Part shown: in pieces, positions 1 through 13,847 of the stretch
Position numbering within the stretch: the first letter of the stretch is position 1
How the letters are laid out: every line of letters begins with the position of its first letter
Assembly: GCA_951812955.1 (NCBI GenBank)
Contig: OX638340.1
Span: forward strand, 64,001 to 128,000
DNA length: 64,000 nt
DNA from: an uncultured Gemmatimonadota bacterium
GTDB lineage: Bacteria; JAAXHH01
Direction: 5' to 3'
The notes under the pieces: generated by a model
Database searches by the model: none
Seen by the model: only the letters and a program-made list of their open reading frames with translations
What the model was told of the DNA's origin: nothing
Program-made: the position numbers and the translations under genes

Positions 1-943
1 GGGAGGCGGCCGTTCGATCATCCTGAATGGCCATCTCGATACGGTCGGAGTCGACGGCATGGACGATCCGTTCCGACCGAGGGTCGAAGGCGGCAGAATG
101 TACGGCCGTGGCACAATCGACATGAAAGCGTCAATCGCCGCGATGATGGCCACTTTGGCCAGGGTGCGGAGAAACCCGTTGAGAGGGAACGTCGTCATGA
201 CGGCTGTCGCCGACGAAGAGGCCTACAGCGTCGGCACCACCGCCGTGCTGGACAGCGGCGTGACGGCTGATGCCGCCATCGTGACCGAACCCACAAGCGG
301 GGACGTCGTCGTCGCGCACAAGGGATTCTCATGGGCCGACGTCATCGCCCAGGGTCGCGCCGCCCATGGCTCCCTGCCGGCCGAGGGGCTCGATGCCATC
401 ACGAAGATGGGTGCGTTCCTTCAAGGGCTTGAAAATCTCCAGGCCGAATTGCATAAACACCCGGGTGATCCTATGCTCGGACCGGGTTCGGTTCATGCTT
501 CGACGATCAGCGGCGGCCGTGAAATGTCGAGTTATCCCGCGACCTGTCACCTCGGCGTGGAAAGGCGCACGATCCCGGGTGAGACCGCCCGGGACTTCAT
601 TGCGGAGCTGGAAGGAATCGCCGAACGGTGCCGCCAGGCCGATCCGGGTTTCCAGGCCGAGATCACTCTGACCTTCGATCGACAGCCATTTTCGATTGAG
701 GCAGATCATGAAATCGTCGAGCTGGTCAGGACGGTCGCTACGGAGACAACCGGTCGAGCGCCAGACATATGCGGGAAAGCCGGCTGGATGGATGCCGCGC
801 TGCTGAGCGAGCGCTCGATTCCGACCGTTATCTACGGTCCGGCAGGAGGCGACTTCCACGGGGATAACGAATGGGTGGACCTGGCGTCGATCGAAGTGTG
901 CGCCGATGTCCTCACAGATGTTGCCAGCGAGTTCTGTGCATGA
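1..943 (+). CDS. M20-family metallopeptidase/deacylase (ArgE/DapE-like), 5' end cut by window edge
   Basis: The frame is open from nt 2. The upstream in-frame peptide reads ...ILNGHLDTVGVDGMDDP, which is the M20 His-x-Asp metal-binding motif, ahead of the first in-window ATG at 59. The rest of the 294-aa ORF has M20-like acidic/His residues (VADEEAYS, VAHKGFSWA). Confidence 0.75.
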   Translation, partial: GGGRSIILNGHLDTVGVDGMDDPFRPRVEGGRMYGRGTIDMKASIAAMMATLARVRRNPLRGNVVMTAVADEEAYSVGTTAVLDSGVTADAAIVTEPTSGDVVVAHKGFSWADVIAQGRAAHGSLPAEGLDAITKMGAFLQGLENLQAELHKHPGDPMLGPGSVHASTISGGREMSSYPATCHLGVERRTIPGETARDFIAELEGIAERCRQADPGFQAEITLTFDRQPFSIEADHEIVELVRTVATETTGRAPDICGKAGWMDAALLSERSIPTVIYGPAGGDFHGDNEWVDLASIEVCADVLTDVASEFCA

Positions 944-972
944 CCGGGAGCCCGGGGCGCGATGCACGAACC

Positions 973-1092
973 ATATATCCAGATTAAACTCATCCAAAAA
1001 CATGGCGCCAAGATTCCGGGGTTTTATTGGGTACGGGTATGGTTCGGAACTGATCAGACTTGACAACAACTTAGTTCAGAGATTAAACTGAT
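973..1092. repeat. Pair of about 14-bp direct repeats (AGATTAAACTCATC / AGATTAAACTGATG) about 100 bp apart at the GC-drop boundary
   Basis: The repeats were read directly at about 975-988 and 1078-1091. They sit just after the M20 stop codon, where base composition becomes AT-richer. Confidence 0.3.
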
Positions 1093-1622
1093 GTACAAAT
1101 AACTTATAGAACGCGTCCAGGCCGTTCTCGCCTGGGCACTTGTATTTACACCGTAACAGGATCAGGCGGAACGATGATTCGGACGGTAAGACGCGGTATC
1201 GGTACGGTCGTGATTTGGTTGATCACAACGCTGGTTCGATTGGGGAAACGGTTAATGCGGAATCGGAAACGAGGCGTTGCCTAGCGGAGGATGTGGCGCG
1301 GGCAGCACGGTAGGCAACGAGGGTCGAACCGGAAATCGGATGACGATTGGCAAACGGCCGGTAGTAACGTTAATCACCGATACGATATGCCAGCCGGGGG
1401 GGTGGTACAATACCCGGCGGCGATACAATAGCCGACTACCACATCGAGTATGACTCGCGAGATGGGACCACAAAAGGCGGAAGGATTCGCCGGTTGTGGT
1501 TTTTTTTGTGCGTGGATCCCGGCTCGGTACCTTAGTCATCAAACAGCGTACTTATTCCGAGAACTATACCGATGCTTCCGCTCAATAGATATATAGTCGA
1601 CATACAAAACCATATTGAGACT

Positions 1623-2693
1623 CTATTGACGAGCATTCGTCAGGTCTTCCAATTCATCTTCTTTGTAGGTGGCAGGTACCCATTCACGCGACAGGTATGG
1701 CTTGTCAATTTCGTCCAACTGTAATGCATCACGGTACCATTTGGGTAGGCCAGCTGTCGGCGGATTATCTGGATGGTAAATCGGCCGGTTCCATTGCGGC
1801 ATGCCGACTTCCGGCCAATGATCCTTGTCGTACTTCATAGGATATACCCACCAGAGTCCCAAATTAGATTCAACCAGGAAAATCTCGTCAGGCAAATAAG
1901 TACGCCCAGCAAGTAGAGTTGGTAACTGGTTCCCGATGAGGTCGAATCTCGTATGAGCTGCGTCCTGGCTTTCTAAAACCAGGACGGTTCGTGCTCCATC
2001 AGCACGACACTTCGCCAACTTTGGAAACTTGTCAGCAAAAGCTCTACGGATCCGTTCCGTCCGACAGCTTTCCAAGTCTTCGGGATAGTCAAGTACCGTT
2101 TGAACAAAGCCCGGCTTTCGTCCTGCCTTAATCCCATTCCGCCACCTCAGCAATTCGACTGTACAGTTTATACACGAGAGATCGTCTTTGATGCTATCGT
2201 CGGGAAAACAGTAAAGGCTGATTGGGATTCCATGGCAGTCGATAGGTAAAGACAGTAAGGTATTCCTCTCGTACATGGTCTGGGCACTGCTTAGAATCCA
2301 TTCGGCAAGGTTCTTCAAAGCCCTAACTCGTTTGACTTTCCCCCTGGGCAGACAAACATCTGTTGGTACTTGAAGCACGTAGTACATGGGATCTGGTAAC
2401 TGGCCGGCGAGGCTTTGTATCAAGTACTGTCTAATCTCCACGACGGTTAACTCAGTTTTAATATTGTTCTCAAAGGGTTCAATTATTGTGTGCTCAATCG
2501 CGTATTCTTGTTCACCCAATTTCATACGCAATTCCACTGGCGGCCCTACTCGATCACTCTCAGGATGACGTATTTCAGATCGTTTCTTCCGAGTGCGTCT
2601 TTCCATAGTCTTCACAACCGCGTCGCACGCCTTGCCCTCGTTTTTAGGTACGATTACGTGCGGTTTACTGTATGGAGTCTCGTTATTCTTCAT
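1623..2693 (-). CDS. Hypothetical protein (356 aa), no recognisable domain; island gene
   Basis: Long ORF with AT-richer codon usage like its neighbours. I could not recognise any conserved motifs. Confidence 0.5.
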   Translation of the reverse strand: MKNNETPYSKPHVIVPKNEGKACDAVVKTMERRTRKKRSEIRHPESDRVGPPVELRMKLGEQEYAIEHTIIEPFENNIKTELTVVEIRQYLIQSLAGQLPDPMYYVLQVPTDVCLPRGKVKRVRALKNLAEWILSSAQTMYERNTLLSLPIDCHGIPISLYCFPDDSIKDDLSCINCTVELLRWRNGIKAGRKPGFVQTVLDYPEDLESCRTERIRRAFADKFPKLAKCRADGARTVLVLESQDAAHTRFDLIGNQLPTLLAGRTYLPDEIFLVESNLGLWWVYPMKYDKDHWPEVGMPQWNRPIYHPDNPPTAGLPKWYRDALQLDEIDKPYLSREWVPATYKEDELEDLTNARQ

Positions 2694-3149
2694 CGTTTCC
2701 TAATCTAAATGTAATTAACGGAAAATCGCTGTTGATGGCTGAGTCAGACCCTTTCACCAGTCTTCCGATCCGGTAGCCTTCTGTAGCCTTCTACTGATTA
2801 CAACTTCCAAACCTAATCCAGGAGCCATGCGCCTTGTGGAGATTGCCCCTCTGCAGTAGGGCGGCAGGTCACGAAAGAATCCGTGGACCACTCCAGTAAG
2901 ATTTCACGTAGCATCGCCTACTCGCCCTGACTGTCAAATGCAACCTAGCCATCGGTAACACCAAGCGTGATTCACTAAAGACGGTAAGCCCATGAAGTCT
3001 TCACGGTTCAAAGAAACTCCGAATTCCCTTATCTACGGGTTTTAAAGGGTTATGTAGGGGAGGTGTTGGCAACTGCTAATGGATGTTTCAGAGGGTGGGA
3101 ATGCGGTGTTGAGGCAACTCATAATAGTCCTGGTGATATCTAATCCCCA

Positions 3150-3635
3150 TCACAAGTTGTTTGTACGTCGGAGTAATTTGGATGATACCCAACTCCATGC
3201 TTTCCAAACAAACGAGGTTTTAGTTAGTAAGCCTTGCTCTTTATCAGTCTCCATACGGTCATCGGAGTTGAAAAACCGGTTGATTTCCAATCTATGGTTA
3301 CTTCGCTCCTCAAGAATCTCACGTGTAGACCATCGGCGTGACCAATGAACTTTGTTATTTTCGATCCAATAATGTGATTGACACTCCTCACTCCAATTTC
3401 CCACAGAGGGCCGGAGACTTATAGATAACCCATTGTAAATAAACGCCCACCCAGTGGGATGTAACGGTGTGTTTATCTCGCTACCACACCCACATGCACA
3501 TTTATGGATTACAGTACGGTACTTCAGCGAAATGTAAATTCGACCGTCTTCTAAACGGTTGGGTACAACATCCGAGAAGACCGGGGTAAATTCAGTCGTT
3601 TTTGAAGACCGTTCTAATCGTTTTGTTTTGCACAC
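3150..3635 (-). CDS. Cys-rich small protein (161 aa; CACGCGSE...LHPTG), possible Zn-binding or E2-like partner of the E1-like gene
   Basis: Its start overlaps the last 22 nt of the upstream E1-like gene, suggesting translational coupling. It has a CxCxC cluster followed by an HPT-G motif and a further Cys/His pair (ECQSH). The size is E2-like, but there is no canonical HPN-x8-Cys arrangement. Confidence 0.45.
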   Translation of the reverse strand: MCKTKRLERSSKTTEFTPVFSDVVPNRLEDGRIYISLKYRTVIHKCACGCGSEINTPLHPTGWAFIYNGLSISLRPSVGNWSEECQSHYWIENNKVHWSRRWSTREILEERSNHRLEINRFFNSDDRMETDKEQGLLTKTSFVWKAWSWVSSKLLRRTNNL

Positions 3636-4831
3636 TCGACGTAGTCCCGGTTTATTATCTTGTTTCCGTCCATTATATATCCGGAATCACCCTCATGAAC
3701 TAAGTCTTGAAATACACCTCGGATTTTCTTCCATTTTATTACTGCCAATGCTGCATTGAGGGCGTTTAGTTCTGCCAATTGTATGTTTCTTTCGTACTCT
3801 CCAACATCTCCTCCTGCCATATCGATACGATTCTTCTCTGTCACATGGCCCCTATTGCCCGGTTCACTAGTAGTCGTTCGGAGTATCCCGCCTAGTCTAT
3901 CTCCTTCACGATAAATCCCCATCCCGGTATCAATACAAACGCTCTCGGCATCTTCGCAAATCCTAAATATAGATTGTTTTATGGCATGGCCATCAATACA
4001 CAGGAAAACTGTATCGTGTCCTTTTAACTCATTAACGTTTTCCTCCACAATCTTAGTGGGATGTGCAACAATACCGCGACGCATACGACTGTAGCGTTCG
4101 AAATGAAACTCTGATTTGATGGGGCCTCCTTCCAATTCTTCAACCGCTACTGCTCCCGGTGCTCGAAATGAGTTGTGCTGAAGAAAACGGTCATCGTCAT
4201 ACAGATGGATCTCTTTAACCCATGTCTTAGCAACATAGTCGAGAACGTAAGCCCCGGTCCCACCTAAACCAACAATTGCTACAGTCTCCCCTTCCAATCT
4301 CGAAGATATATCTGTTGTATTTTGACGGGCTGACGCTGTTTCCATAAACGCGAATACATTCGAATTGCTCTCGGATTTCGCGACTTTCCACTTCTGCGCC
4401 GACGTTGACGAGTCGATTTTCCTAGCTTCTCGCGTTATGATTTCAATATAGGTTCTTACTTTGTGTTCATAATCTATGTACCGCCCGCCTTCCGGCTTGG
4501 CTGAAAACATATAGGTTAACTTTAGACCATTGCTCAGAATCTGGTTGTGGCCGCTTTCACCCAGAACCTCAAGCTTCTGTGAATTCCCGTCATACGGAAA
4601 TTCTCCTGTCCAATAGGCCACGTGGTCACCTGGTTGACTAGTTCTCTCGCCTCTGAGGTCAAGTTGCATTACTAATGTTGCCTCTGCAATTCCTCCAACA
4701 CTGGTAACATAAGGCACATCTTGTATTAGAAGGTAGCCATCTATAAATCGGATTGTATATCCGGATTCCTCTATGCGTTTCAGATCCGTATTACGAGCGA
4801 TCAGTGCGTGTGACATTGAATACTGTCCCAT
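3614..4831 (-). CDS. ThiF/MoeB/E1-like adenylyltransferase with an unrecognised ~170-aa N-terminal domain
   Basis: Residues ~175-405 show the Rossmann motif VAIVGLGGTGAYVLDYVAK, an acidic/Arg-finger segment YDDDRFLQHNSFR, a VFLCIDGHAIKQ segment, and downstream Cys residues (ICEDAESVCIDTG), as in E1/ThiF enzymes. The N-terminal 170 aa contain no Cys and match nothing I recognise. Confidence 0.7.
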   Translation of the reverse strand: MGQYSMSHALIARNTDLKRIEESGYTIRFIDGYLLIQDVPYVTSVGGIAEATLVMQLDLRGERTSQPGDHVAYWTGEFPYDGNSQKLEVLGESGHNQILSNGLKLTYMFSAKPEGGRYIDYEHKVRTYIEIITREARKIDSSTSAQKWKVAKSESNSNVFAFMETASARQNTTDISSRLEGETVAIVGLGGTGAYVLDYVAKTWVKEIHLYDDDRFLQHNSFRAPGAVAVEELEGGPIKSEFHFERYSRMRRGIVAHPTKIVEENVNELKGHDTVFLCIDGHAIKQSIFRICEDAESVCIDTGMGIYREGDRLGGILRTTTSEPGNRGHVTEKNRIDMAGGDVGEYERNIQLAELNALNAALAVIKWKKIRGVFQDLVHEGDSGYIMDGNKIINRDYVECAKQND

Positions 4832-5060
4832 CCTTTATCTTCACATTTTCGCCTTCGCTCAAACCACCTTCTTGTTCACGTCCACCACCTTCATAAAACA
4901 GCACTGTGTAACTAATTAAAGCGCCACGACCACCATCCGGGTAAGCTAAATCCACTATTTCGTCAAAAGTCACTTCGTCATGGTCTACGGTGTACGGACG
5001 TGCATTGATTATGATATCAAAACCCTTGTTCTCTAGACTTTGCTGAGGTTCTTTTTCCAT
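4791..5060 (-). CDS. Small beta-grasp/ubiquitin-like protein resembling prokaryotic 'multi-ubiquitin' domains (~89 aa)
   Basis: The segment FDIIINARPYTVDHDEVTFDEIVDLAYPD fits the xIxVNGxxxxVxxxxIsxxEIxxLA pattern of multi-ubiquitin (PF14452-type) beta-grasp domains. The start was chosen at the internal ATG (nt 5060), which is preceded by AAGGAGG 14 nt upstream. The longer ORF from 5147 lacks an RBS and would overlap the upstream gene by 58 nt. Confidence 0.5.
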   Translation of the reverse strand: MEKEPQQSLENKGFDIIINARPYTVDHDEVTFDEIVDLAYPDGGRGALISYTVLFYEGGGREQEGGLSEGENVKIKDGTVFNVTRTDRS

Positions 5061-5089
5061 ATTAATGGCTTCCGCCTCCTTATCGGGAT

Positions 5090-5629
5090 TCAGGCTATGT
5101 CCCTGATGCCCAATGTCAACCCTCCTGAGCGAACGAATTCCCTCCATAGAGGTGACAACAATTGAGCTGCAACTGGAGCTTCACGAGAAGAAAGTATAAT
5201 TTGTAATTCTCTCCTTTCATCTAAAGGTGCCTCTTTCCATATATTGTACAAATCCCAGCAGTTTCCGTCCGTCAAAATACCGTACCTTACCCCGACCTCA
5301 GTACAGTATGTCAACATCTGAGTGCGGTGTGTGTTGAGATCCTCGTTCAGTTTTTTTGCCTCGACTAGAACCAGTGGCTTTCTATCTTCTCCAAGTAATG
5401 CGTAGTCAACACGCTGATTCGCTTGATTTCCTGTACGGAATTCAACTTCTACATGCTCTACGATGCTAACGTCCCAAGCAAGGGCTTTCAATACCGGATC
5501 CACTAATACATTCCTTGTCCTTATCTCATTTTTCTGGAGGTATTCTCCGTGTTTTACTATTACCTCACGTGCTCGTTGTAGCGTGCTTACCAAGGGTTCT
5601 AACAAATCAGTCATAAACTCCCTCACCAC
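5090..5629 (-). CDS. PD-(D/E)xK restriction-endonuclease-fold protein (179 aa), candidate nuclease effector
   Basis: RVDYALLGEDRKPLVLVEAKK gives the D...(D/E)-x-K catalytic signature of the Mrr/PD-(D/E)xK nuclease fold. It is the first gene of the minus-strand operon that continues into the Ubl-like and E1-like genes. Confidence 0.5.
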   Translation of the reverse strand: MVREFMTDLLEPLVSTLQRAREVIVKHGEYLQKNEIRTRNVLVDPVLKALAWDVSIVEHVEVEFRTGNQANQRVDYALLGEDRKPLVLVEAKKLNEDLNTHRTQMLTYCTEVGVRYGILTDGNCWDLYNIWKEAPLDERRELQIILSSREAPVAAQLLSPLWREFVRSGGLTLGIRDIA

Positions 5630-5982
5630 TAAGTGAGCGATTCCCCAGTTGAACTTCTCTACTATAATATACGGCTAGCGGATCTGTACATATTACTTAA
5701 CGTATGATTCGTATGGAACTCTGTCAAATAGATTTCAACTTGAATACAATGTCATTGCTGAATAGATCGTAGCCATATCTCATCTACACCATTGAGTAGC
5801 ATATTGGATTACGCGCGGCGGTTTGGTAATATCGCGCATTCAGGTAGTTGGCGATGCACTTGGCACGCCGCACGGTCCCTGCAGATACGCCACAGAGCCA
5901 ACTCAGGCATGCACGAGTCATTTAACATCAGCCCTAGAAAATGCCCTTGACATCATATGATTTATGAGTCATGTTATGATGT

Positions 5983-6351
5983 ATGAAATGGGAAGTCGAT
6001 TTCCATCCGGCGTTTGATCCCGAGTTTGCCGCCATGGCACTGAAGGTGCAGGACGAACTGCTTACACAAGCAAAGCTCTTGGAGGAGTTCGGACCAACAT
6101 TAGGTCGTCCGCGGGTGGATACGCTAAATGGTTCGCGGCATGCTAATATGAAGGAACTTCGTTTTACTATGACTGGCGGAGTCTGGCGGGTCGCATTTGC
6201 TTTCGACCCCGAACGTAAGGCCATGCTACTGGTTGCCGGCGATAAATCGGGAGTCGGTGAACAACGGTTCTACCAGCAACTGATCAGGAAGGCGGATCAC
6301 CGCTTCGATCTACATCTTGAACTGTTGAAAGCTGAGAGGAGGCCAAGATGA
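5983..6351 (+). CDS. Type II toxin, RelE/ParE-superfamily (HigB/Gp49-like) killer protein
   Basis: A 122-aa protein with ...KELRFTMTGGVWRVAFAFDPERKAMLLVAGDKSG...RFY..., the typical HigB/Gp49 core. It is followed by an HTH antitoxin gene that overlaps it by 4 nt. Confidence 0.65.
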   Translation: MKWEVDFHPAFDPEFAAMALKVQDELLTQAKLLEEFGPTLGRPRVDTLNGSRHANMKELRFTMTGGVWRVAFAFDPERKAMLLVAGDKSGVGEQRFYQQLIRKADHRFDLHLELLKAERRPR

Positions 6352-6698
6352 GTACGTTGACGGACAGAATGGACAAGCTGTCCCCGTCCCGACGGAAGAA
6401 GGTAGAAGAACGGGCCAGGGCGTTGATCGCCGAAGAAATGTCGCTACGGGACTTGCGCAAGGCTCGAAAGCAGACGCAGATGCGGGTCGCCGAGAAGCTC
6501 GGGATCAATCAGGAAAACGTGTCCCGCCTTGAACAGCGCAGTGATCTCTTGATTTCCACCCTCAGCGGCTATGTCGAGGCGATGGGGGGTAAACTGAGTC
6601 TGGTGGCGGAGTTTCCGGACCGGCCGCCAGTGGCGCTGACTGGCATTGCGGCACTCGACGACCTTTTGGAGCGGCCTGCAGAATCTCGTACCGGATGA
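6348..6698 (+). CDS. XRE-family helix-turn-helix antitoxin (HigA-like)
   Basis: A 116-aa protein with an HTH segment (LRKARKQTQMRVAEKLGINQENVSRLEQ). The toxin-then-antitoxin order matches HigBA. Confidence 0.65.
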   Translation: MSTLTDRMDKLSPSRRKKVEERARALIAEEMSLRDLRKARKQTQMRVAEKLGINQENVSRLEQRSDLLISTLSGYVEAMGGKLSLVAEFPDRPPVALTGIAALDDLLERPAESRTG

Positions 6699-6964
6699 AG
6701 AGAGGATCGCGATATGGTCGCAGGCGGGTCGCTAAACGTCGAAAACACACCGGTTCCCGGGTGTCGCGAATCTCAGATTTGGGATATATAACTACAGTGA
6801 GGCGGGACCGGCCTTGGCCTTAGTGGCAAAACGCCTACGATCGATCAGTTCGCATTCCACGCTTGTGAAGATTCTCTTGCACAGCACGTTGTCATAGTAG
6901 TCGTTTACCGAGCCCATAGATGGCCAGATGCCAGCCGTGCAAACCGGTGCCCGTCGGAGCGAAC

Positions 6965-8140
6965 TCATCCACTAGGCGTTCGTCCACCGACCTCCGTCGA
7001 GATTTGTAGAATATACATCAGTGACGGATCGGATTTGAGGAGAATGGCCCGCAGCTGTTCGTCGGTTAGCTTTGTCTCCAATTCGTGGACCCGGTTGAAA
7101 AACTCGATCAGCTTCACCAGTGCTTTGGTGTCTTGGATCACGAATTCAGACAGCGGATCGTTGTACAACTCCCGACAGACGTACAGTACCCTCGCTCGAC
7201 GGGTTGGCTTGCCCTCATGTAGCAGATCCTTCTGATTAGCTAGGCTCAGAATCCATGCAGTAACTAGATCGTCGGGGGCTAATCGTCGGAGCAAATGGTT
7301 CCACAGCTCCCTGAGGGAGGTCAGAATGTGCCGTGCCCGGTCGGCACTGTTTCCATTCAGGGCATCTCGAGCGCCGATGTATGGCCCAGCGAGACTTGGA
7401 TCGACCTGTTGCAGCAGAATGATGCAGTCGGATGTTTCTAACTCTGCCTCGGCGACAAACTGGAATTCCGTTTCGGCCTCTTCTTCGTCCCGTTCACCCC
7501 AGGGGCGAAGAGTTTTGAGCGCGAAGCTGGTAGTGTAGATTTCACGAGTGGCGCCTGGCAAAACGAAAGCAGGTAAGCGCGTAATGTCCGAGACCTCCCG
7601 CAGTGAACCGGCCAAACTTCCATATGAGGCAGCCACCTGGGCAATCGAACTCTCCAGCCCTGAAATGGCGGGCATCTTGATTTGGAATTGACTCCCTATG
7701 GCCTTGAAATCGATGTTCGCCATGAGTCGTTCCGTGGCGATCAATTGCAAAGAAGTATCGCCCAGGGCCAACTTAGCGGATGCTTGAAGCTGGAAAAGTT
7801 GGGAAACTCCCTGTTGAAGAAGATTCGACTGGTCAAGCCAGGATTCATGAGTGGTATGCAGACTCTCGGCAATCCAGTTAGAAGCGGTAGTCTGTTTGAT
7901 CACATCATGCCAGTGTTGATTGGCGTTGGCGATCTCTTTAATCCCGGCCACTGCTTCAGGTATTTCGAGGGCACGACTGATTTCCATTTGATGGAGACGG
8001 AATGGTTCTATCGTGCGTTCTAACTGTTCTATAACGCCTAGGTAGGATGGCTTGGCCAAACGGTTGGAAGCCTCCATGTCCTGACGGAGTTTGCCGATGG
8101 CGGATTTTGCGGACATCAGATCTTCGGAGAGAATATCCAT
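6965..8140 (-). CDS. Hypothetical protein (391 aa), no recognisable domain; island gene
   Basis: Long ORF in the AT-richer island, between the TA pair and HerA. No motifs recognised. Confidence 0.5.
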   Translation of the reverse strand: MDILSEDLMSAKSAIGKLRQDMEASNRLAKPSYLGVIEQLERTIEPFRLHQMEISRALEIPEAVAGIKEIANANQHWHDVIKQTTASNWIAESLHTTHESWLDQSNLLQQGVSQLFQLQASAKLALGDTSLQLIATERLMANIDFKAIGSQFQIKMPAISGLESSIAQVAASYGSLAGSLREVSDITRLPAFVLPGATREIYTTSFALKTLRPWGERDEEEAETEFQFVAEAELETSDCIILLQQVDPSLAGPYIGARDALNGNSADRARHILTSLRELWNHLLRRLAPDDLVTAWILSLANQKDLLHEGKPTRRARVLYVCRELYNDPLSEFVIQDTKALVKLIEFFNRVHELETKLTDEQLRAILLKSDPSLMYILQISTEVGGRTPSG

Positions 8141-8223
8141 ATTTTGATGTTAGTCCCGGAGTTGTCAAATTGCAAGGCTGTGTGGATGTTTGGGTATGCT
8201 GGTACCTTCAACCTCAATTGAAA

Positions 8224-9915
8224 TCATCGGCGCTGATATCTCCAACGCTTAACAACATCTTGAATTTCCGAGTCAGGAGTTGCATCGTTTTGCCACCCCT
8301 TATCGAAGTCAATGTCATTTGATTTCGGTAGCTGATCAGGATTTAAATCACGTATTAGGATGCGCGACGGCAACATTGCAGCTTGGCCAACGAAAATTGC
8401 CTCTTGCCTCCGTAAACCAGAAAGCATCTTTGTCAGACCAGACATCGAATCTGGTAGAATGGATCGAACATGCTCCCTGTCGGCGTCATTGGTGATTCGC
8501 ATAACAATCCAGCTATTGCATTGTGAAAGAACCGTTGCCTCAACTTCGCTTGGGCGCTGGGATACCAACAGGAGCCCTACACCATACTTTCGACCTTCCT
8601 TAGCAACACGCCTGATTGCTTCTTGAGCAGCCTCATATTGCGCTTCGCCCCGATTTGGAACGTAGCGATGAGCTTCTTCACATACCAGTAAAACTGGGTC
8701 AGATTCGCGCTCTGATTGGGTTTGCCAAATCTTCAGATTGAATAAAGTTCGAGCAATTACCGCACTTGATACACCGGCTACTTCATTGGGGACACCGGAC
8801 AGATCTACTATTCTTGGTTGAGACCCATCCCCGATAAGTTGCTTGATAACAGTAAGAAAAGGATCGTTATTTTCCCATTCTGACATCATGAATCGGAGTC
8901 GAGCATCGGTCATTAAGACTTCGAGTTTTTGGAGTATCGAGTTATGAGAATCTTGTTTGCTGAGCGCAGTTGGCTTATCCGCTTCAATCTTTTCTATAAG
9001 CCTCGATAACTTGTATGGTACGGGGGAATCAACAGTTATGAGATTGACATCAAGACCTAGCTGATGCGCACCTTCTTCGCGGGCGTAGATTAAGGCTCTC
9101 TTTACGATGTTAGCTTGTGAGGTCGCAACAAATTCAGTTCTTCCGATCAACAAGGCAACCGTCTCTTGAAAGTTCAAGAGCCAGTATGGAAGTGTTAGTG
9201 TTCCGTCATCAGAGGAAAGTTTAGTATGATCAGTAAATGCGCTGCCGTATTCACCATGGGGGTCGAGTATAATAACCCTGGGCTTCCATTTCGTATATGA
9301 TCTAGTGTCACCTCTATCAAGAATACTGTGAATGATAGCTGCGACCGTACCTGACTTGCCAGCGCCAGTGGAGCCGAGAACGGCTGTGTGTTTACCAAGT
9401 AGTTCATTCAAATCTGCAAAACATGGGGTCCCGCCTGAACCTACATGCTGCCCGAGCTGAACAACGGCACTTTTCGCTTTCCCGTAAATAAAACGCAATT
9501 CAGCTTTTGGAGTCAGATAGACAGTTTGCTGTGGGAGTGGATAGGTTGATACCCCACGTTCAAAAAAAAGCTTCCATTCACTAGATGTCCCATGAATCCA
9601 TTCGCCTTCGCCGAACAGGTCTGCTTCGACGATTCTTTCATCCGAAGATGATGCTGACACCAATCCTCGTTCTGCTTGAAATTCTGATTTCATCCTTAGT
9701 CGGCCGACCAACGCGTAGACGGTTTGACGCCCGAAATGGACTTTGACAATGGAACCAAATTGTCCGATGGGATAGGTTTCTCCCGCATACACACGCGAGA
9801 GTTCAGAAAGAGTCGGATTTAACTCGGCAACAAGGTGAGATCCATCAACTTCAATTATCTTGCCGATTGCCAGATTCTCAATTGGCTCATTGGGATTGCG
9901 AGTCGAAACACTCAT
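8224..9915 (-). CDS. HerA/FtsK-like (DUF87) ATPase, partner of SIR2 (SIR2-HerA defence system)
   Basis: Walker A is LGSTGAGKSGTVAAII and Walker B/DEAH-like is LLVCEEAHRY. The 563-aa size and the 4-nt overlap with the upstream SIR2 gene match the SIR2-HerA arrangement. Confidence 0.75.
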   Translation of the reverse strand: MSVSTRNPNEPIENLAIGKIIEVDGSHLVAELNPTLSELSRVYAGETYPIGQFGSIVKVHFGRQTVYALVGRLRMKSEFQAERGLVSASSSDERIVEADLFGEGEWIHGTSSEWKLFFERGVSTYPLPQQTVYLTPKAELRFIYGKAKSAVVQLGQHVGSGGTPCFADLNELLGKHTAVLGSTGAGKSGTVAAIIHSILDRGDTRSYTKWKPRVIILDPHGEYGSAFTDHTKLSSDDGTLTLPYWLLNFQETVALLIGRTEFVATSQANIVKRALIYAREEGAHQLGLDVNLITVDSPVPYKLSRLIEKIEADKPTALSKQDSHNSILQKLEVLMTDARLRFMMSEWENNDPFLTVIKQLIGDGSQPRIVDLSGVPNEVAGVSSAVIARTLFNLKIWQTQSERESDPVLLVCEEAHRYVPNRGEAQYEAAQEAIRRVAKEGRKYGVGLLLVSQRPSEVEATVLSQCNSWIVMRITNDADREHVRSILPDSMSGLTKMLSGLRRQEAIFVGQAAMLPSRILIRDLNPDQLPKSNDIDFDKGWQNDATPDSEIQDVVKRWRYQRR

Positions 9916-11072
9916 CTTTCACCTCCAAGCAGGCGGGTCAAGTTTTCAAATTTCCACCAAAGTAGGTCGGTGTCGGATGGTGCTTTTTTGCTGCCGTGAA
10001 AGAAGCCAAGATTAGCAAAAATAAGTACTTGCTCGGTTATGGAGTCATCATCATGCCATCTCTTAAGTAGGCCTTTTGGTTCATCATCAGAGGTAAACAC
10101 CACGACGGTAAGACGACCGTCAGATTCACGTAACGCCCGGTCGATTTCGAGATTGATGTGTGAATCACCAAAGCGGTACCCGCACGTAATCAGTATTTTT
10201 TGCGAACCTGAAACAGCCGTTAGTGCTTTCCGCCCATATTCTGCCAATTGAGCATAGGGGTCTCTTTGAGTTTCACGGTATTTGGTGGATGCTGGCCAAA
10301 TGAGAATCTTGTTTTTACCCCCGGATTGTACTTTGACATTACCGGAAACTCGGCGAGGGAGTGGATCACCATCGAACTCGCACCAGTTTATTGAACCGTG
10401 CAGTTTGAAGATCCTCGACGAGAGTCCATCACGCTCAAAATCCGCAGGATTCCACCATCCGGTGACTCCGCCTTCCAGACCATCTGAAAAGGAAACTCGC
10501 TCAAGCGCGAGTGCATCTTCAAGAAGCGTGTCGTAGTTGAGGCAGAGATAGTCCACACGATCAAAGTTGCCCGTTTTACCAGGCCGAATTGGGCGATGAA
10601 CCGCCTTTACGAATTTGCGATGAACCACTACATCGATTTGCTCGTCATTGTGCTCGATTATATTGGAAATGATACGCTTTATATCTTCTGCAGATTCCCT
10701 TAGTTGCTGGCCAGAATATCGATTGTCTTTGATAGTGATCTGGTCATCGGTTGCGCCTCGCTCCGCCCTTCTTTCAGCGATGGCCAGAAGGTCGATTATT
10801 TCACTAAGGTAGTCCTCAATATCTGGATCACTCGCACCGGTGAAACCTTCCTTAATTCCCTTGAGGATCTCTGTGGTATAGTCACTCAAAGCACCTATTT
10901 CCAGTACTTTAGTAGTTAGTTCTTCCATCAATGGTAAACCCGCGCATTTGCTACAACCTGCACCAATTAGGAACACTTTCCCATGCTGGACCATAAGTTC
11001 GTCTAGCGTATCATAAGCTTCAACTAATTGAGGGGTATCCCATATTGCGTCAAGATTGTCAGGTGCGCTCAT
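9912..11072 (-). CDS. SIR2-family (NAD+-consuming) protein of a SIR2-HerA defence pair
   Basis: The NAD-binding GAGxS motif is VFLIGAGCSKCAGLP. The catalytic Asn/Asp is LCLNYDTLLED and the catalytic His is KLHGSINW. The protein is 386 aa and sits immediately upstream of HerA, overlapping it. Confidence 0.75.
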   Translation of the reverse strand: MSAPDNLDAIWDTPQLVEAYDTLDELMVQHGKVFLIGAGCSKCAGLPLMEELTTKVLEIGALSDYTTEILKGIKEGFTGASDPDIEDYLSEIIDLLAIAERRAERGATDDQITIKDNRYSGQQLRESAEDIKRIISNIIEHNDEQIDVVVHRKFVKAVHRPIRPGKTGNFDRVDYLCLNYDTLLEDALALERVSFSDGLEGGVTGWWNPADFERDGLSSRIFKLHGSINWCEFDGDPLPRRVSGNVKVQSGGKNKILIWPASTKYRETQRDPYAQLAEYGRKALTAVSGSQKILITCGYRFGDSHINLEIDRALRESDGRLTVVVFTSDDEPKGLLKRWHDDDSITEQVLIFANLGFFHGSKKAPSDTDLLWWKFENLTRLLGGER

Positions 11073-11340
11073 ATTAACCCTTTCTCATTTTATCATACTC
11101 CAATTTCCTGACTTCATTGCTATTCATGTGTCGCTATGCCATTAACTTCAACAACACGTCGTCTAGACCAAACCGATCATTCAAGGATTTAGCTATCCGA
11201 ACGAGTTTCGGACTTGGTCCGGAGTAAATAGAGAATCAGTCGCCCAAAGTGAGAGAATGTGTGACGGACAGGGAAAATCGACGATGTGGAACGGTTGTTC
11301 GAGAGGACATTAACAGACGCAATCTCTTAGAAACAAGTGC

Positions 11341-11389
11341 AAAAAACCCGTCATCCCCGAGAATGAGCCAGACCCTAGAGAGACGGGTT
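11341..11389 (-). terminator. Hairpin plus U-run terminator just 3' of ssrA (bidirectional hairpin)
   Basis: An 8-bp stem AACCCGTC (11345-11352) pairs with GACGGGTT (11382-11389) across a roughly 29-nt loop. On the minus strand it is followed by TTTTTT (plus-strand A6 at 11341-11346). On the plus strand it is followed by TCTTTTT. Confidence 0.4.
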
Positions 11390-11402
11390 GTCTTTTTAGA
11401 AT

Positions 11403-11766
11403 TGATGGAGGTGGGGGGAATCGAACCCCCGTCCGAAAGTGCCTAAGCGGAAACTTCTACATGCGTAGCCTGTTGTTTAATCTCGTTCCGGAGAACTCCA
11501 GCAGGCAGGATTTAACCGGAACCAGCCTCAGTTGAGTCTCGCCTGGCGCCCTGAGGCGCGACGCCCGGCCAGCCTGCTTTATCGACGCTTTTGACCATCC
11601 CGCAGGCGGGGCTGATCAAAAACGGGCCGGCCTAAGTTACCTTAGGCAGCCATTGCATACGAAGGTTCGTCTGCAGATAAATTGTTCCCAATGGTTTTAC
11701 GAGGTTATCGGGGACCTCGGCACGCGATTCCCGCCGCATCCACTCCCGTCGAATCCTTTCACCCCC
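11403..11766 (-). ncRNA. ssrA: tmRNA (ssrA)
   Basis: The reverse complement begins GGGGGTGAAAGGATTCGACGGG... and ends ...GGACGGGGGTTCGATTCCCCCCACCTCCA. This gives a tRNA-like acceptor stem with a G3:U70 wobble (the Ala identity element) and a T-arm. The internal frame ...GCA GAC GAA CCT TCG TAT GCA ATG GCT GCC TAA (ADEPSYAMAA-stop) is followed by a helix-5-like GCCTAAG/CTTAGGC stem. CCA is not encoded. Confidence 0.85.
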
Positions 11767-11775
11767 ATGTCAAAG

Positions 11776-11804
11776 AACATAGGCCATTTGGGCGCTTCTG
11801 TCAA
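11776..11804 (-). promoter_or_regulatory. Sigma-70-type promoter for ssrA (TTGACA-N17-TATGTT)
   Basis: On the minus strand, TTGACA (11799-11804), a 17-nt spacer and TATGTT (11776-11781) are read. The -10 element ends 9 nt before the mature tmRNA G1. Confidence 0.5.
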
Positions 11805-11880
11805 ATTCGCCCGGCCGCGATGGTTCGGTTGCATCATGATACGGCAGCACCATGGTACGGCTGCATCGCGGTTTGGCCAG

Positions 11881-11953
<73 letters not shown>

Positions 11954-11959
11954 ATTCCA

Positions 11960-12032
11960 TGAGCGCGGAAGGAATCGAACCTTCGACCCACAGATTAAAA
12001 GTCTGTTGCTCTGCCAACTGAGCTACGCGCCC
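11960..12032 (-). tRNA. tRNA-Lys (anticodon UUU)
   Basis: The reverse complement is GGGCGCGTAGCTCAGTTGGCAGAGCAACAGACTTTTAATCTGTGGGTCGAAGGTTCGATTCCTTCCGCGCTCA. It has a cloverleaf with anticodon loop CTTTTAA. Confidence 0.85.
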
Positions 12033-12045
12033 TCGCAGGCGTAGC

Positions 12046-12074
12046 ATAATAAGCGATTACACCTACTTCGTCAA
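12046..12074 (-). promoter_or_regulatory. Sigma-70-type promoter for the tRNA-Lys pair (TTGACG-N17-TATTAT)
   Basis: On the minus strand, TTGACG (12069-12074), a 17-nt spacer and TATTAT (12046-12051) are read. The -10 element lies 13 nt upstream of tRNA nt 1. Confidence 0.45.
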
Positions 12075-12131
12075 CCGATTTCCGGTTAGGACAGGATGGC
12101 CAATGAGCACGAACGCGGGGCCCGCGAAACC

Positions 12132-13409
12132 TTACATGAAAATGGTCGCGTCTCGATGCGAACCCACGGAAACGAGGTCCACTTTGGCCTTCACCAGTTC
12201 CGATATGCGCTCGATGTATGCCTGGGCTTCCTTCGGCAATCCGTCCCAGGTCCGTATGTGGCCGGTGGGCCGATCCCAGCCCTCCATCTCCTCGTATACG
12301 GGCTCGCATCGGCGCAGGACGTTCGCGTCGTTGGGCAGATGAGGGACCACCTCGCCGTTCAGCCTGTATCCGACGCACAGCCTCAGCGTCTGGAGCGTGT
12401 CCAAGGTGTCGAGGCGGGCGAGGGCCAGCCGGTCGATGCCGTTCACCATGACCGCGTAGCGAACCACCATGGCGTCGAACCAGCCGCACCGGCGCGGGCG
12501 GCCCGTCGTAGCGCCGAATTCACCCGCCATGCGCCGGAATTCGTCTCCCCACCTGGAAGGAAACTCAGTGGGGAAGGGGCCGTTGCCTACCCGGGTGGTG
12601 TAGGCCTTGGCCACGCCGATGACTTCGTCGATGCGGGTGGGACCGACGCCGGCGCCCATGCAGGCGGCACCCGTGGTCGTGTTGGAGGACGTGACGTAGG
12701 GATAGGTCCCGTGGTCCACGTCCAGCAGGGTGCCCTGGCTGCCCTCGAACAAGATCTCCTTGTCGGCATCAATAGCGTCGTTGAGATATTCCGACGTATT
12801 CGTCACGAATGGACCGATCCGGTCAGCAAATGCCATGTACTCCTCGATGATCCGGTCGGCGTCGAGCGTCTCGGCCTGGTATATGGCGTCGAGAATCCTG
12901 TTCGCCTCGTCGATATTGCGCTGAAGCTTCTCGCGAAGCACGGACCGATCGTGCAGGTCGCCGATGCGAATACCCTTGCGGGCAGCCTTGTCCGCATAAG
13001 CGGGACCGATACCCCTTCCCGTGGTACCGATCCGCTCTTCCTCCTGCAACTGTTCTTCCCCGACCCGGTCGATCAGCTTGTGGTACGGCATGATAACGTG
13101 GGCGTTGTGGCTGATGAAAAGGCGTCCCTCCACGTCGATGCCGTGAGACCCGAGCATCTCGATCTCTTCCATCAGCGCTTCCGGATCGATCACCGTGCCG
13201 TTGCCGATGACGCAGGCCTTGTCCTGCCGGAGGATGCCGACTGGTATGAGGTGGAGGATGTACTCCTGGTCTCCGATCTGAACGGTGTGCCCGGCATTGG
13301 CCCCGCCCTGGAACCGCACGACGATATCGGCCCGCTCACTCAGGAAATCGACGATCTTTCCCTTGCCTTCATCTCCCCACGCTGCGCCTACGAGTATGCG
13401 AACGGCCAT
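12132..13409 (-). CDS. purA: Adenylosuccinate synthetase
   Basis: The N-terminus reads MAVRILVGAAWGDEGKGKIVDFLSERADIVVRFQGGANAGHTV and the protein is 425 aa. Confidence 0.92.
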   Translation of the reverse strand: MAVRILVGAAWGDEGKGKIVDFLSERADIVVRFQGGANAGHTVQIGDQEYILHLIPVGILRQDKACVIGNGTVIDPEALMEEIEMLGSHGIDVEGRLFISHNAHVIMPYHKLIDRVGEEQLQEEERIGTTGRGIGPAYADKAARKGIRIGDLHDRSVLREKLQRNIDEANRILDAIYQAETLDADRIIEEYMAFADRIGPFVTNTSEYLNDAIDADKEILFEGSQGTLLDVDHGTYPYVTSSNTTTGAACMGAGVGPTRIDEVIGVAKAYTTRVGNGPFPTEFPSRWGDEFRRMAGEFGATTGRPRRCGWFDAMVVRYAVMVNGIDRLALARLDTLDTLQTLRLCVGYRLNGEVVPHLPNDANVLRRCEPVYEEMEGWDRPTGHIRTWDGLPKEAQAYIERISELVKAKVDLVSVGSHRDATIFM

Positions 13410-13847
13410 CTTTCTTCCATCTCCCTGTTGATTCCCGGACTGTCTGAATCCCGCTTCGAAGTCGACCGGTATCCGGGTCCATAAACAATAAAAGGGCGAG
13501 TCATAAGACCCGCCCTCAAGACCGTTAGATCTTACAGTTCATTGTATGCGGTATGGGCGTGGGAGGTCAAGAAAAAAACGGCTGAAAAACGGGCAGGTTC
13601 ACGGTACCGGCGCGCCGCCGAATAGATCGGTTGACATTCGCGCCGTGGGTGATACTAATGCATGTTATACATTAATCGGGCGGTAACATAGTTTGTAGCG
13701 GATTGGATTGCGGCCGGACGCGGGCTGGGAGCGTGCAGCAACGCAGCTGGACACGGACCATAAGCGGATTGTGTCACGGCCGGATCCAATCTGGGAGCAT
13801 GGCCGTACTTGCCCCATCCCAATAAGAACAGAAAAGAGAGCCTTCCC

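Follow-up and report, generated by a model that had tools for sequence, protein, structure and literature searches.

How a 10.4-kb block of AT-richer DNA came to lie against the 3' end of the transfer-messenger RNA (tmRNA) gene, ssrA, is the question raised by a 64,000-nucleotide (nt) stretch of DNA from an uncultured Gemmatimonadota bacterium (GenBank assembly GCA_951812955.1, contig OX638340.1, positions 64,001 to 128,000), the whole of which is here called the window. A preliminary description of the window had taken this block for a single, roughly 10-kb low-GC defence island inserted at the ssrA/tRNA-Lys hotspot. Comparison with related loci leads us to consider it likely that the interval from the ssrA 3' end to the M20/DLH genes is a chromosomal defence hotspot, holding five separately acquired modules, in which cargo is exchanged cassette by cassette without a resident recombinase. 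The earlier view of acquired defence and addiction DNA at an ssrA hotspot, lacking an integrase or a repeated attachment (att) site, is retained, and its single insertion is replaced by at least five modules with separate distributions. Judged by its gene families, the island appears to be a horizontally acquired stack of anti-phage and toxin-antitoxin (TA) cassettes that was assembled piecemeal.

The block (956-11401) was delimited by GC content and by comparison with relatives, and the compositional switch is genuine, far exceeding what chance would give. GC is 0.478 at 956-11401 versus 0.626 at 1-955 and 0.622 at 12100-64000. GC at third codon positions (GC3) is 0.40-0.57 in nine of the ten island genes (the tenth, a helix-turn-helix (HTH) gene, has 0.70) and 0.71-0.83 in six flanking housekeeping genes. 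The tetranucleotide distance to the rest of the window, taken over 4-kb segments, is 0.033-0.049 in the island, two to four times that of any other stretch of the window, and at most 0.019 from 12 kb onward. The AT-richer block of about 10 kb that had been described is thereby borne out by all three profiles. Composition within the island is uneven, with GC of 0.50-0.57 at 5750-7750, where the TA pair and a gene for a 391-amino-acid (aa) protein lie; all ten genes are on the minus strand apart from the TA pair.

On the left, the island is flanked by the 3' part of an M20 deacylase (ArgE/DapE) gene (59-943, plus strand; NCBIfam TIGR01910, E 5.6e-55), which is truncated by the window start, has host-like composition (GC 0.62, GC3 0.71) and finds homologs at 76-91% identity, several of which are named Gemmatimonadetes or Gemmatimonadota by NCBI. 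On the right, ssrA (11403-11766, minus strand; tag EPSYAMAA; ARAGORN; Rfam RF00023, 196 bits) faces the block with its 3' end, and beyond it come tRNA-Lys(CTT) and tRNA-Lys(TTT), both on the minus strand, followed by purA, a TIM-barrel isomerase gene, gcvPB, gcvPA and accC onward. Relatives place the left edge at 956, 13 nt past the M20 stop at 943, and the right edge at 11401/11402, 3 nt beyond the tmRNA 3' end. The earlier placement of the block between M20 and ssrA holds, with its left limit of 1100 moved about 150 nt further left; its right limit at the ssrA terminator was near the mark, except that the terminator itself (11341-11397) belongs to the variable DNA.

Relatives were gathered through M20 homologs and their contigs, and are numbered as loci (L081 and so on) on contigs from metagenome assemblies. 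A search with purA as the probe was abandoned, its universal motif WGDEGKGK saturating the scan and yielding only relatives of at most 56% identity. Neither the SIR2 nor the GcvPA protein has an exact match on record. The hotspot comparison is based on about eight loci from different species-level lineages. An empty ssrA-adjacent site, which the preliminary description had proposed to look for, is present in L081 (M20 88% identical in nucleotides), in which the M20 stop is followed by 307 nt and then by ssrA, with no cargo; this locus aligns to window positions 1-955 and 11400-13577 and to nothing in between. In L082 (M20 89% identical in amino acids) the order is M20, Aminotran_5, DLH, 1.8 kb of small open reading frames (ORFs) and ssrA. 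Past DLH, L083 (M20 86% aa) carries Gp49/HTH-like remnants, a 470-aa ORF and a type I restriction-modification (RM) system with AAA_13, and L175 (M20 83% aa) carries an HTH fragment, a homolog of the island gene ORF356, small ORFs and ssrA. The closest relative, L084 (91-96% in nucleotides), reads DLH, AbiE, M20, the non-coding module 1, an IS256 insertion sequence (IS), ORF356, an IS3 element, a truncated nuclease gene, small ORFs, an MNT/HEPN-like pair and ssrA. The core genes on the ssrA side (ssrA, both tRNA-Lys genes, purA and gcvP) are kept in L081, L082, L084 and L175, as are M20, Aminotran_5 and DLH on the other side, the only side that L083 shows. Seven loci have seven different contents at the hotspot.

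Parts of the island are nevertheless shared in place with single relatives, and the ends of the shared stretches define module breakpoints at 1520-1537, 2760-2964, 5756, 6708 and 11401. Positions 1-1520 and 1528-2782 are in place in L084, where 2783-11401 is replaced. L093 has 295-1537 and 5757-9965 and is without 1538-5756; no direct repeats surround the block that it lacks, and an unrelated 309 nt stand there instead. L090 has 1604-2760 and 2964-6708, with a HEPN_LA2681 gene past the TA pair. Identity to L093 is itself a mosaic (96% for the TA pair, 81-85% for the 391-aa gene and 92-96% for HerA). The earlier account had held that the island would be ancestral if related genomes carried the same genes syntenically with similar composition; such synteny is found for single modules in single relatives, never for the whole, and the modules shared in place are low in GC there too.

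The order of M20 and DLH varies among these loci. L082, L083 and L175 have M20, Aminotran_5, DLH, cargo and ssrA, as far as each contig reaches, and the lineage of the window (L081, L084) has DLH, M20, cargo and ssrA. A fragmented second M20 copy is kept at the old position in L081, where the stretches concerned are 6582-7529 and 10195-11149. By these arrangements the M20 gene itself has moved, and it may be DLH, to the left of the window, that truly bounds the hotspot on the core side.

At the other edge, the window and L081, L082 and L084 share the same sequence as far as ...CCACCTCCA-TCA, and from the following base on they are unrelated. The final 40 nt of ssrA are identical or almost so in the three relatives, divergence setting in 3 nt past the 3' end. 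The hairpin terminator that now ends ssrA (11341-11397, bidirectional) is thus part of the variable DNA, within an island-borne, unstranded non-coding segment (11169-11401) that is unlike the ssrA-downstream DNA of L081, L082 and L084. Homologs of 11169-11396 at 70-77% identity were found on unrelated metagenome contigs (L098, 1841-2100; L103, 7676-7799), near genes with the pP_pnuc_1 domain that also marks the 391-aa protein, and weaker nhmmer matches in L104 (7476-7657) and L119 (9589-9809). In L098, L103 and L119 the homolog comes after sequence ending ...TCCCTCCACCA. Neither ARAGORN nor Rfam detected a tRNA or tmRNA beside these homologs, and RNA-like neighbouring sequences had no Rfam match. 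This segment of 230 nt, which runs from the SIR2 promoter region to the tmRNA 3' end, may represent a small RNA or the end of an element.

Searches for traces of site-specific integration agreed with what had been reported from the first inspection. The absence of a recombinase was borne out by annotation of ORFs and intergenic fragments, no tyrosine or serine recombinase being found among the ten annotated island genes or the stop-free intergenic fragments, and seven related loci have no integrase in their 10-kb flanks. The lack of a convincing tmRNA 3'-end repeat was likewise confirmed: the last 19-24 nt of ssrA have no second copy in the 64 kb at up to three mismatches. There is no direct repeat at the island boundaries, and the island holds no phage or conjugation genes. 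Two other candidates were rejected. A remnant of the ssrA-downstream spacer and terminator of L081, sought at the far end of the island, gave only chance matches of 10-11 nt. A 20-nt inverted repeat (1327-1346/12068-12087, 95% complementary) brackets the whole tRNA-ssrA-island block, one copy overlapping the tRNA-Lys promoter region, but the pair is not conserved in L084 or L081 and we judged it coincidental as a recombination site.

Whole cassettes would, in our reading, be swapped by homologous recombination, with ssrA as the anchor on one side and, on the other, either M20/DLH or one of the internal modules held in common (module 1, ORF356, the TA pair). Insertion and deletion mediated by IS elements at module junctions would also contribute, and no resident site-specific recombinase would take part. 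Recombination anchored in flanks and modules, together with IS activity, would account for both the breakpoints and the mosaic identity, so that no resident recombinase is needed. It is possible that an integrase since lost brought in the first occupant at the 3' end of ssrA.

Profile matches uphold the earlier calls of a SIR2-HerA pair, a HigBA-like pair and a module of E1, ubiquitin-like (Ubl) and nuclease genes. The first of these lies nearest to ssrA, where the gene for a SIR2-like NADase partner of HerA (9912-11072, minus strand; PADLOC PDLC04088 at full length, E 1.7e-68; PF13289) has its stop overlapping by 4 nt the start of a HerA ATPase gene (8224-9915, minus strand; PADLOC PDLC04105, E 1.6e-138; DUF87, E 4.7e-34). 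HerA matches the HerA chains of solved SIR2-HerA complexes (E 1e-60 to 1e-70), and for SIR2 the match (E 1.1e-12) is to 8w9l, the SIR2 component of one such complex. The abstracts of PMC11514289, PMC11472057 and PMC13434337 present SIR2-HerA as a phage-triggered NADase/nickase complex that acts by abortive infection. By family membership, the HerA ATPase ring encoded here, with SIR2 bound to it, would answer phage infection with NAD+ depletion, DNA nicking and abortive infection. No HerA relatives were found on viral contigs.

HerA is followed by a gene for an all-helical protein of 391 aa (6965-8140, minus strand) with a C-terminal, HEPN-like pP_pnuc_1 domain (PF18165, named 'predicted pPIWI-associating nuclease') that bears the sequence RELWNH. 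This was one of two large ORFs that had been called unrecognisable, a label that neither deserves; the other, ORF356, belongs to a family with a predicted restriction-endonuclease-like fold. Residues R270, H271, S275, R277 and H352 are invariant in the 391-aa family, and the consensus SLRELWxH constitutes an Rx4H motif. The family has 1250 representatives, several of them fused to HsdS specificity subunits. Among 80 metagenome loci (L093-L172), its gene is usually the last in a same-strand operon, followed by unrelated housekeeping genes. The preceding gene, scanned in 57 cases, encodes an SbcC/AAA_23-type ATPase in 19, a DEAD/ResIII helicase in nine, GmrSD in seven and HerA in four. Family members are 70-79% identical across dozens of metagenome contigs (gut, sediment, Tara Oceans) despite differing upstream partners, which suggests a wide recent horizontal spread of this gene alone.

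HerA lies directly upstream of the 391-aa gene in eight other loci (88-94% protein identity), six of which have SIR2 as well (79-85%), and the nucleotide homology of the HerA-bearing loci spans window positions 6994-11176. Because HerA recurs upstream in these eight loci, and SIR2 in six of them, SIR2, HerA and the 391-aa protein gene can be said to travel as a three-gene cassette in this clade. The cassette resembles the two-gene SIR2-HerA system (PMC11472057, PMC11514289, PMC13434337) in its adjacent, overlapping SIR2 and HerA genes and in its matches to PADLOC profiles and solved complexes. It differs in the HEPN-like third gene that follows HerA here and in the eight other loci, the abstracts of the same three papers describing a two-component system. 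Family membership makes the third gene a probable RNase-type accessory effector.

The second defence cassette is a nuclease-Bub operon. A PD-(D/E)xK nuclease of the HSDR_N type (5090-5614; PF04313/PF13588, E ~3e-7) is followed by BubA, an 89-aa ubiquitin-like protein with a single beta-grasp domain (4791-5060; PF14452, Multi_ubiq, E 3.6e-14), by BubBD, an E2-E1 fusion of DUF6791 and ThiF (3614-4816; PF20590, E 1.4e-41; PF00899, E 8.2e-13), and by BubE, a DUF6527 zinc-finger serine protease (3150-3635; PF20137, E 9.9e-23), all on the minus strand. The start of BubBD was set at its second Met, following the calls in relatives. Because the genes overlap or are separated by 29-nt gaps, nuclease, BubA, BubBD and BubE are taken to form one operon. 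Homologs of the nuclease (93, 68, 63 and 51% identity in L090, L091, L092 and L173/L174) all lie directly upstream of BubA-BubBD, and BubE was located beside those operons by tblastn where it had not been called, including in L173/L174. The neighbourhoods of the operons are otherwise unrelated, giving five independent contexts, and the D...ExK motif of the nuclease is conserved. In this clade, the nuclease gene consistently heads the Type II Bub operon. In L084, a nuclease homolog of 45% identity is truncated by the IS3 element. No BubBD relatives were found on viral contigs.

Four Bub sequences (window, L090, L091 and L092) were aligned for motifs. BubE has conserved CxCxC ... PSVGNW ... CQSH motifs in all four, retaining the zinc ligands CxCxC...C and the Ser/His dyad. 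In BubBD, whose best solved relative is Citrobacter BubCD, Ser105, Lys107, His118, Arg218 and Tyr341 are invariant; by position and motif rather than by alignment with the E. coli protein, S105, R218 and Y341 are one residue off the published E. coli S106, R219 and Y342. In all four loci BubA has 89 aa and an identical C-terminus, ...FNVTRTDRS, which does not end in Gly. Either a non-Gly carboxylate is adenylated or the tail is first trimmed by BubE.

Bub enzymes have been reported to conjugate BubA through Tyr and Ser oxyesters, a reaction reversed by BubE (bioRxiv 10.1101/2024.11.21.623953), and we follow the same source for the function of the BubE family. If the proteins of the window act as their families do, BubA would be adenylated by the E1 half of BubBD, passed via Tyr and Ser oxyesters to a target, and removed by BubE. 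The PD-(D/E)xK nuclease would probably be an effector or a regulated target of the operon. With the Type II Bub systems of bioRxiv 10.1101/2024.11.21.623953 and 10.1101/2024.11.21.623966 the operon shares a single beta-grasp BubA, a BubBD E2-E1 fusion and a DUF6527 BubE, without a JAB peptidase, as well as the Ser/Lys/His residues, the crossover-loop Tyr that replaces Cys and the adenylation Arg at the published positions. Three features set it apart: the nuclease is its first gene, and the word 'nuclease' is absent from the main text of both papers; BubA ends in ...TDRS instead of Gly, a conserved Gly being documented for Type I BubAB; and no CapW/BrxR or CapH+CapP regulator adjoins the operon.

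Between the two defence cassettes lies the TA pair, a Gp49/HigB-like toxin gene (5983-6351, plus strand; PF05973, E 2.2e-19) overlapping by 4 nt an HTH-XRE antitoxin gene (6348-6698, plus strand; HTH_37/HTH_31), which from family membership would act as a HigBA-like addiction or regulatory module. The pair recurs in L083, L090, L093 and L175 and has nucleotide matches of 64-70% on alphaproteobacterial plasmids, annotated as a RelE/ParE toxin with an XRE regulator. In the plasmid collection, this pair and a weak SIR2 match were the only island genes to be found, and no vector was identified. A decayed C-terminal piece of an IS3-family (rve) transposase (~6801-6935, minus strand) sits at the junction of the TA and SIR2-HerA modules, between the breakpoint at 6708, where homology to L090 ends, and the edge of the SIR2-HerA cassette at 6994. 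It was detected by tblastn, Pfam being negative on the fragment: a stop-free stretch of 56 aa (6795-6962, minus strand) hit 557 plasmid records (best E 3e-10, 57% identity), several among the matches listed being annotated as IS3 family transposase, and its alignment with the IS3 transposase of L084 falls in the catalytic YDN...E region. The hotspot of L084 has intact IS256- and IS3-type transposase genes. The relic abuts the stop codon of the 391-aa gene, and the last ~9 residues of the 391-aa protein are unlike those of most homologs, which suggests that an IS event reshaped the 3' end of that gene.

Module 2 consists of ORF356 (1623-2693, minus strand), which encodes 356 aa and matches nothing in Pfam, NCBIfam or PADLOC. 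Its family has at least 224 homologs, none with a Pfam domain. A confident AlphaFold model (predicted local distance difference test, pLDDT, 83; predicted template modelling score, pTM, 0.76) has a predicted restriction-endonuclease-like (PD-(D/E)xK) fold, so that ORF356 would be a restriction-endonuclease-fold protein. Homologs occur at the same hotspot in L084, L175 and L090; another, in L088, is found in a different defence island, beside Hachiman, an XhoI RM system and PIN toxins. About 200 nt of the spacer between ORF356 and BubE (2761-2963) are missing from the otherwise collinear L090, homology to L084 ends at 2782, and no repeat or family match was found within 2761-2963.

Module 1, next to M20, is a conserved non-coding unit (956-1527, plus strand) with counterparts in L084 (12512-13085) and L093 (4869-5435). 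It has a promoter-like site (1060-1089, 10 of 12 positions matching) and a hairpin terminator (1468-1507), and contains neither an ORF with a family match nor an Rfam match. The unit occurs in L084/L085 and L093 and is absent from L081. Three genomes hardly differ over its core of about 160 nt (1146-1310), compared with ~91% identity in the M20 coding DNA alongside. There are four compensatory pairs, one of them in the terminator stem, and the fold z-score is -2.5, making the module a candidate RNA of about 410 nt. A recurrent breakpoint lies directly past its terminator (1520-1537), in L084 at an IS256 insertion and also in L090 and L093.

Several points weigh against a hotspot filled by cassette exchange. 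The recombination mechanism is drawn from patterns in eight loci, in which mosaic identity is suggestive only. The relatives, ~83-96% identical in nucleotides, are not strains of one species, and deletion could secondarily have produced the 'empty' site of L081. The window opens within M20, and with AbiE left of M20 in L084 and M20 duplicated in L081 the hotspot may extend further left. The junction between SIR2 and ssrA (11176-11402) is supported by no independent contig, and defence function is predicted from gene families. An integrase inserting into ssrA would likewise leave a terminator borne by the island in place of the native one, and divergence setting in exactly 3 nt past the tmRNA. 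One rival proposal is that a single integrative island, satellite or prophage remnant entered ssrA by a tyrosine integrase and later lost the integrase and the distal att site, the modular differences arising afterwards. In its favour, integrases classically target the 3' ends of tmRNA genes, and in all four comparisons it is precisely there that the junction falls. Island DNA also stands in place of the native terminator that L081 and L082 show, and the 230 nt nearest to ssrA have counterparts at unrelated metagenome loci, as would be possible for the end of an element. However, the window has no integrase, integrase fragment or ssrA repeat, the related loci examined have no integrase, the modules have independent distributions and breakpoints, there are no phage or conjugation genes, and relatives of the Bub or HerA genes were not found on viral contigs. 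We consider this origin unlikely.

It is very improbable that the island is ancestral DNA of the lineage with an atypical composition, its absence from relatives being due to deletions. In keeping with that view, L084 has module 1 and ORF356 in synteny, at an identity (85-91%) much like that of the flanks, and several relatives again contain ORF356 and the TA pair; but GC3 lies 20-40 points under that of host genes, seven loci have seven contents, and the SIR2-HerA-HEPN and nuclease-Bub cassettes turn up, at 63-94% protein identity, in unrelated surroundings that have no tmRNA close by. Their patchy distribution suggests cassette phylogenies incongruent with the flanking core genes. An assembly chimera, in which low-GC contigs of another organism were joined to a Gemmatimonadota scaffold, would fit the apparently environmental source, the closest relatives, all of them metagenome assemblies, and the missing independent support for the SIR2-ssrA junction. 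Most junctions are nonetheless reproduced by independent samples (M20-module 1 in L084 and L093, module 1/ORF356 with an IS in L084, ORF356-Bub-TA in L090, and module 1...TA-391aa-HerA-SIR2 in L093), which leaves a chimera scarcely credible. A chromosomal hotspot with piecemeal exchange of cassettes is the explanation that we prefer.

The locus extends the pattern of an ssrA-flanked, often integrase-free core defence hotspot from Pseudomonas to Gemmatimonadota, a modest gain, and provides a worked case, its breakpoints defined, of cargo turned over one cassette at a time. Each module adds something of its own: a nuclease locked to a Type II Bub operon is a testable candidate effector for a pathway without a known phenotype; a very widespread HEPN-like gene recurs in last position after defence NTPases of several kinds; ORF356 represents a family of at least 224 proteins, without a Pfam match and with a predicted nuclease-like fold, that has ties to defence islands; and a strongly conserved non-coding unit, module 1, marks a recurrent recombination junction. 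A bolder proposal, which we put forward tentatively and with more doubt than confidence, is that nuclease-BubA-BubBD-BubE forms a distinct Bub subtype, the nuclease being a Ubl-switched effector or a conjugation target, and that in parallel SIR2-HerA-HEPN is a three-component variant with the HEPN-like gene as a plug-in second effector. Were the part on the nuclease true, Bub pathways, whose role was left open by their discoverers, would gain their first concrete output.

Integrase-borne islands and prophages reportedly reside in the 3' end of ssrA, as told in Williams' 'Traffic at the tmRNA gene'. Like those islands, the present one has its insertion point at the tmRNA 3' end, and foreign DNA supplies the sequence downstream of ssrA; unlike them, it has no integrase, duplicated ssrA 3' segment, phage genes or transfer genes. 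The closest known analogue is cDHS2, a core defence hotspot of Pseudomonas aeruginosa, which the available portion of its description (Johnson et al. 2023, PMC10250203) presents as ssrA-flanked, with 47% of sites having no detectable mobile gene and with IS3-family transposases as the commonest mobility genes. Both loci are bounded by tmRNA and conserved core genes, have GC below that of the host and carry hypervariable defence cargo, and in both the size ranges from near-empty to many kb, mobile genes are often absent and traces of IS3 occur. They differ in phylum and in flanks, the present hotspot lying in Gemmatimonadota between M20/DLH and purA, and in sampling, with about eight loci against hundreds. 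Bub and SIR2-HerA variants are part of the cargo here and are not shown for cDHS2 in that portion of PMC10250203. The type of locus is thus already known, and the nuclease-Bub and SIR2-HerA-HEPN cassettes within it are modestly novel variants.

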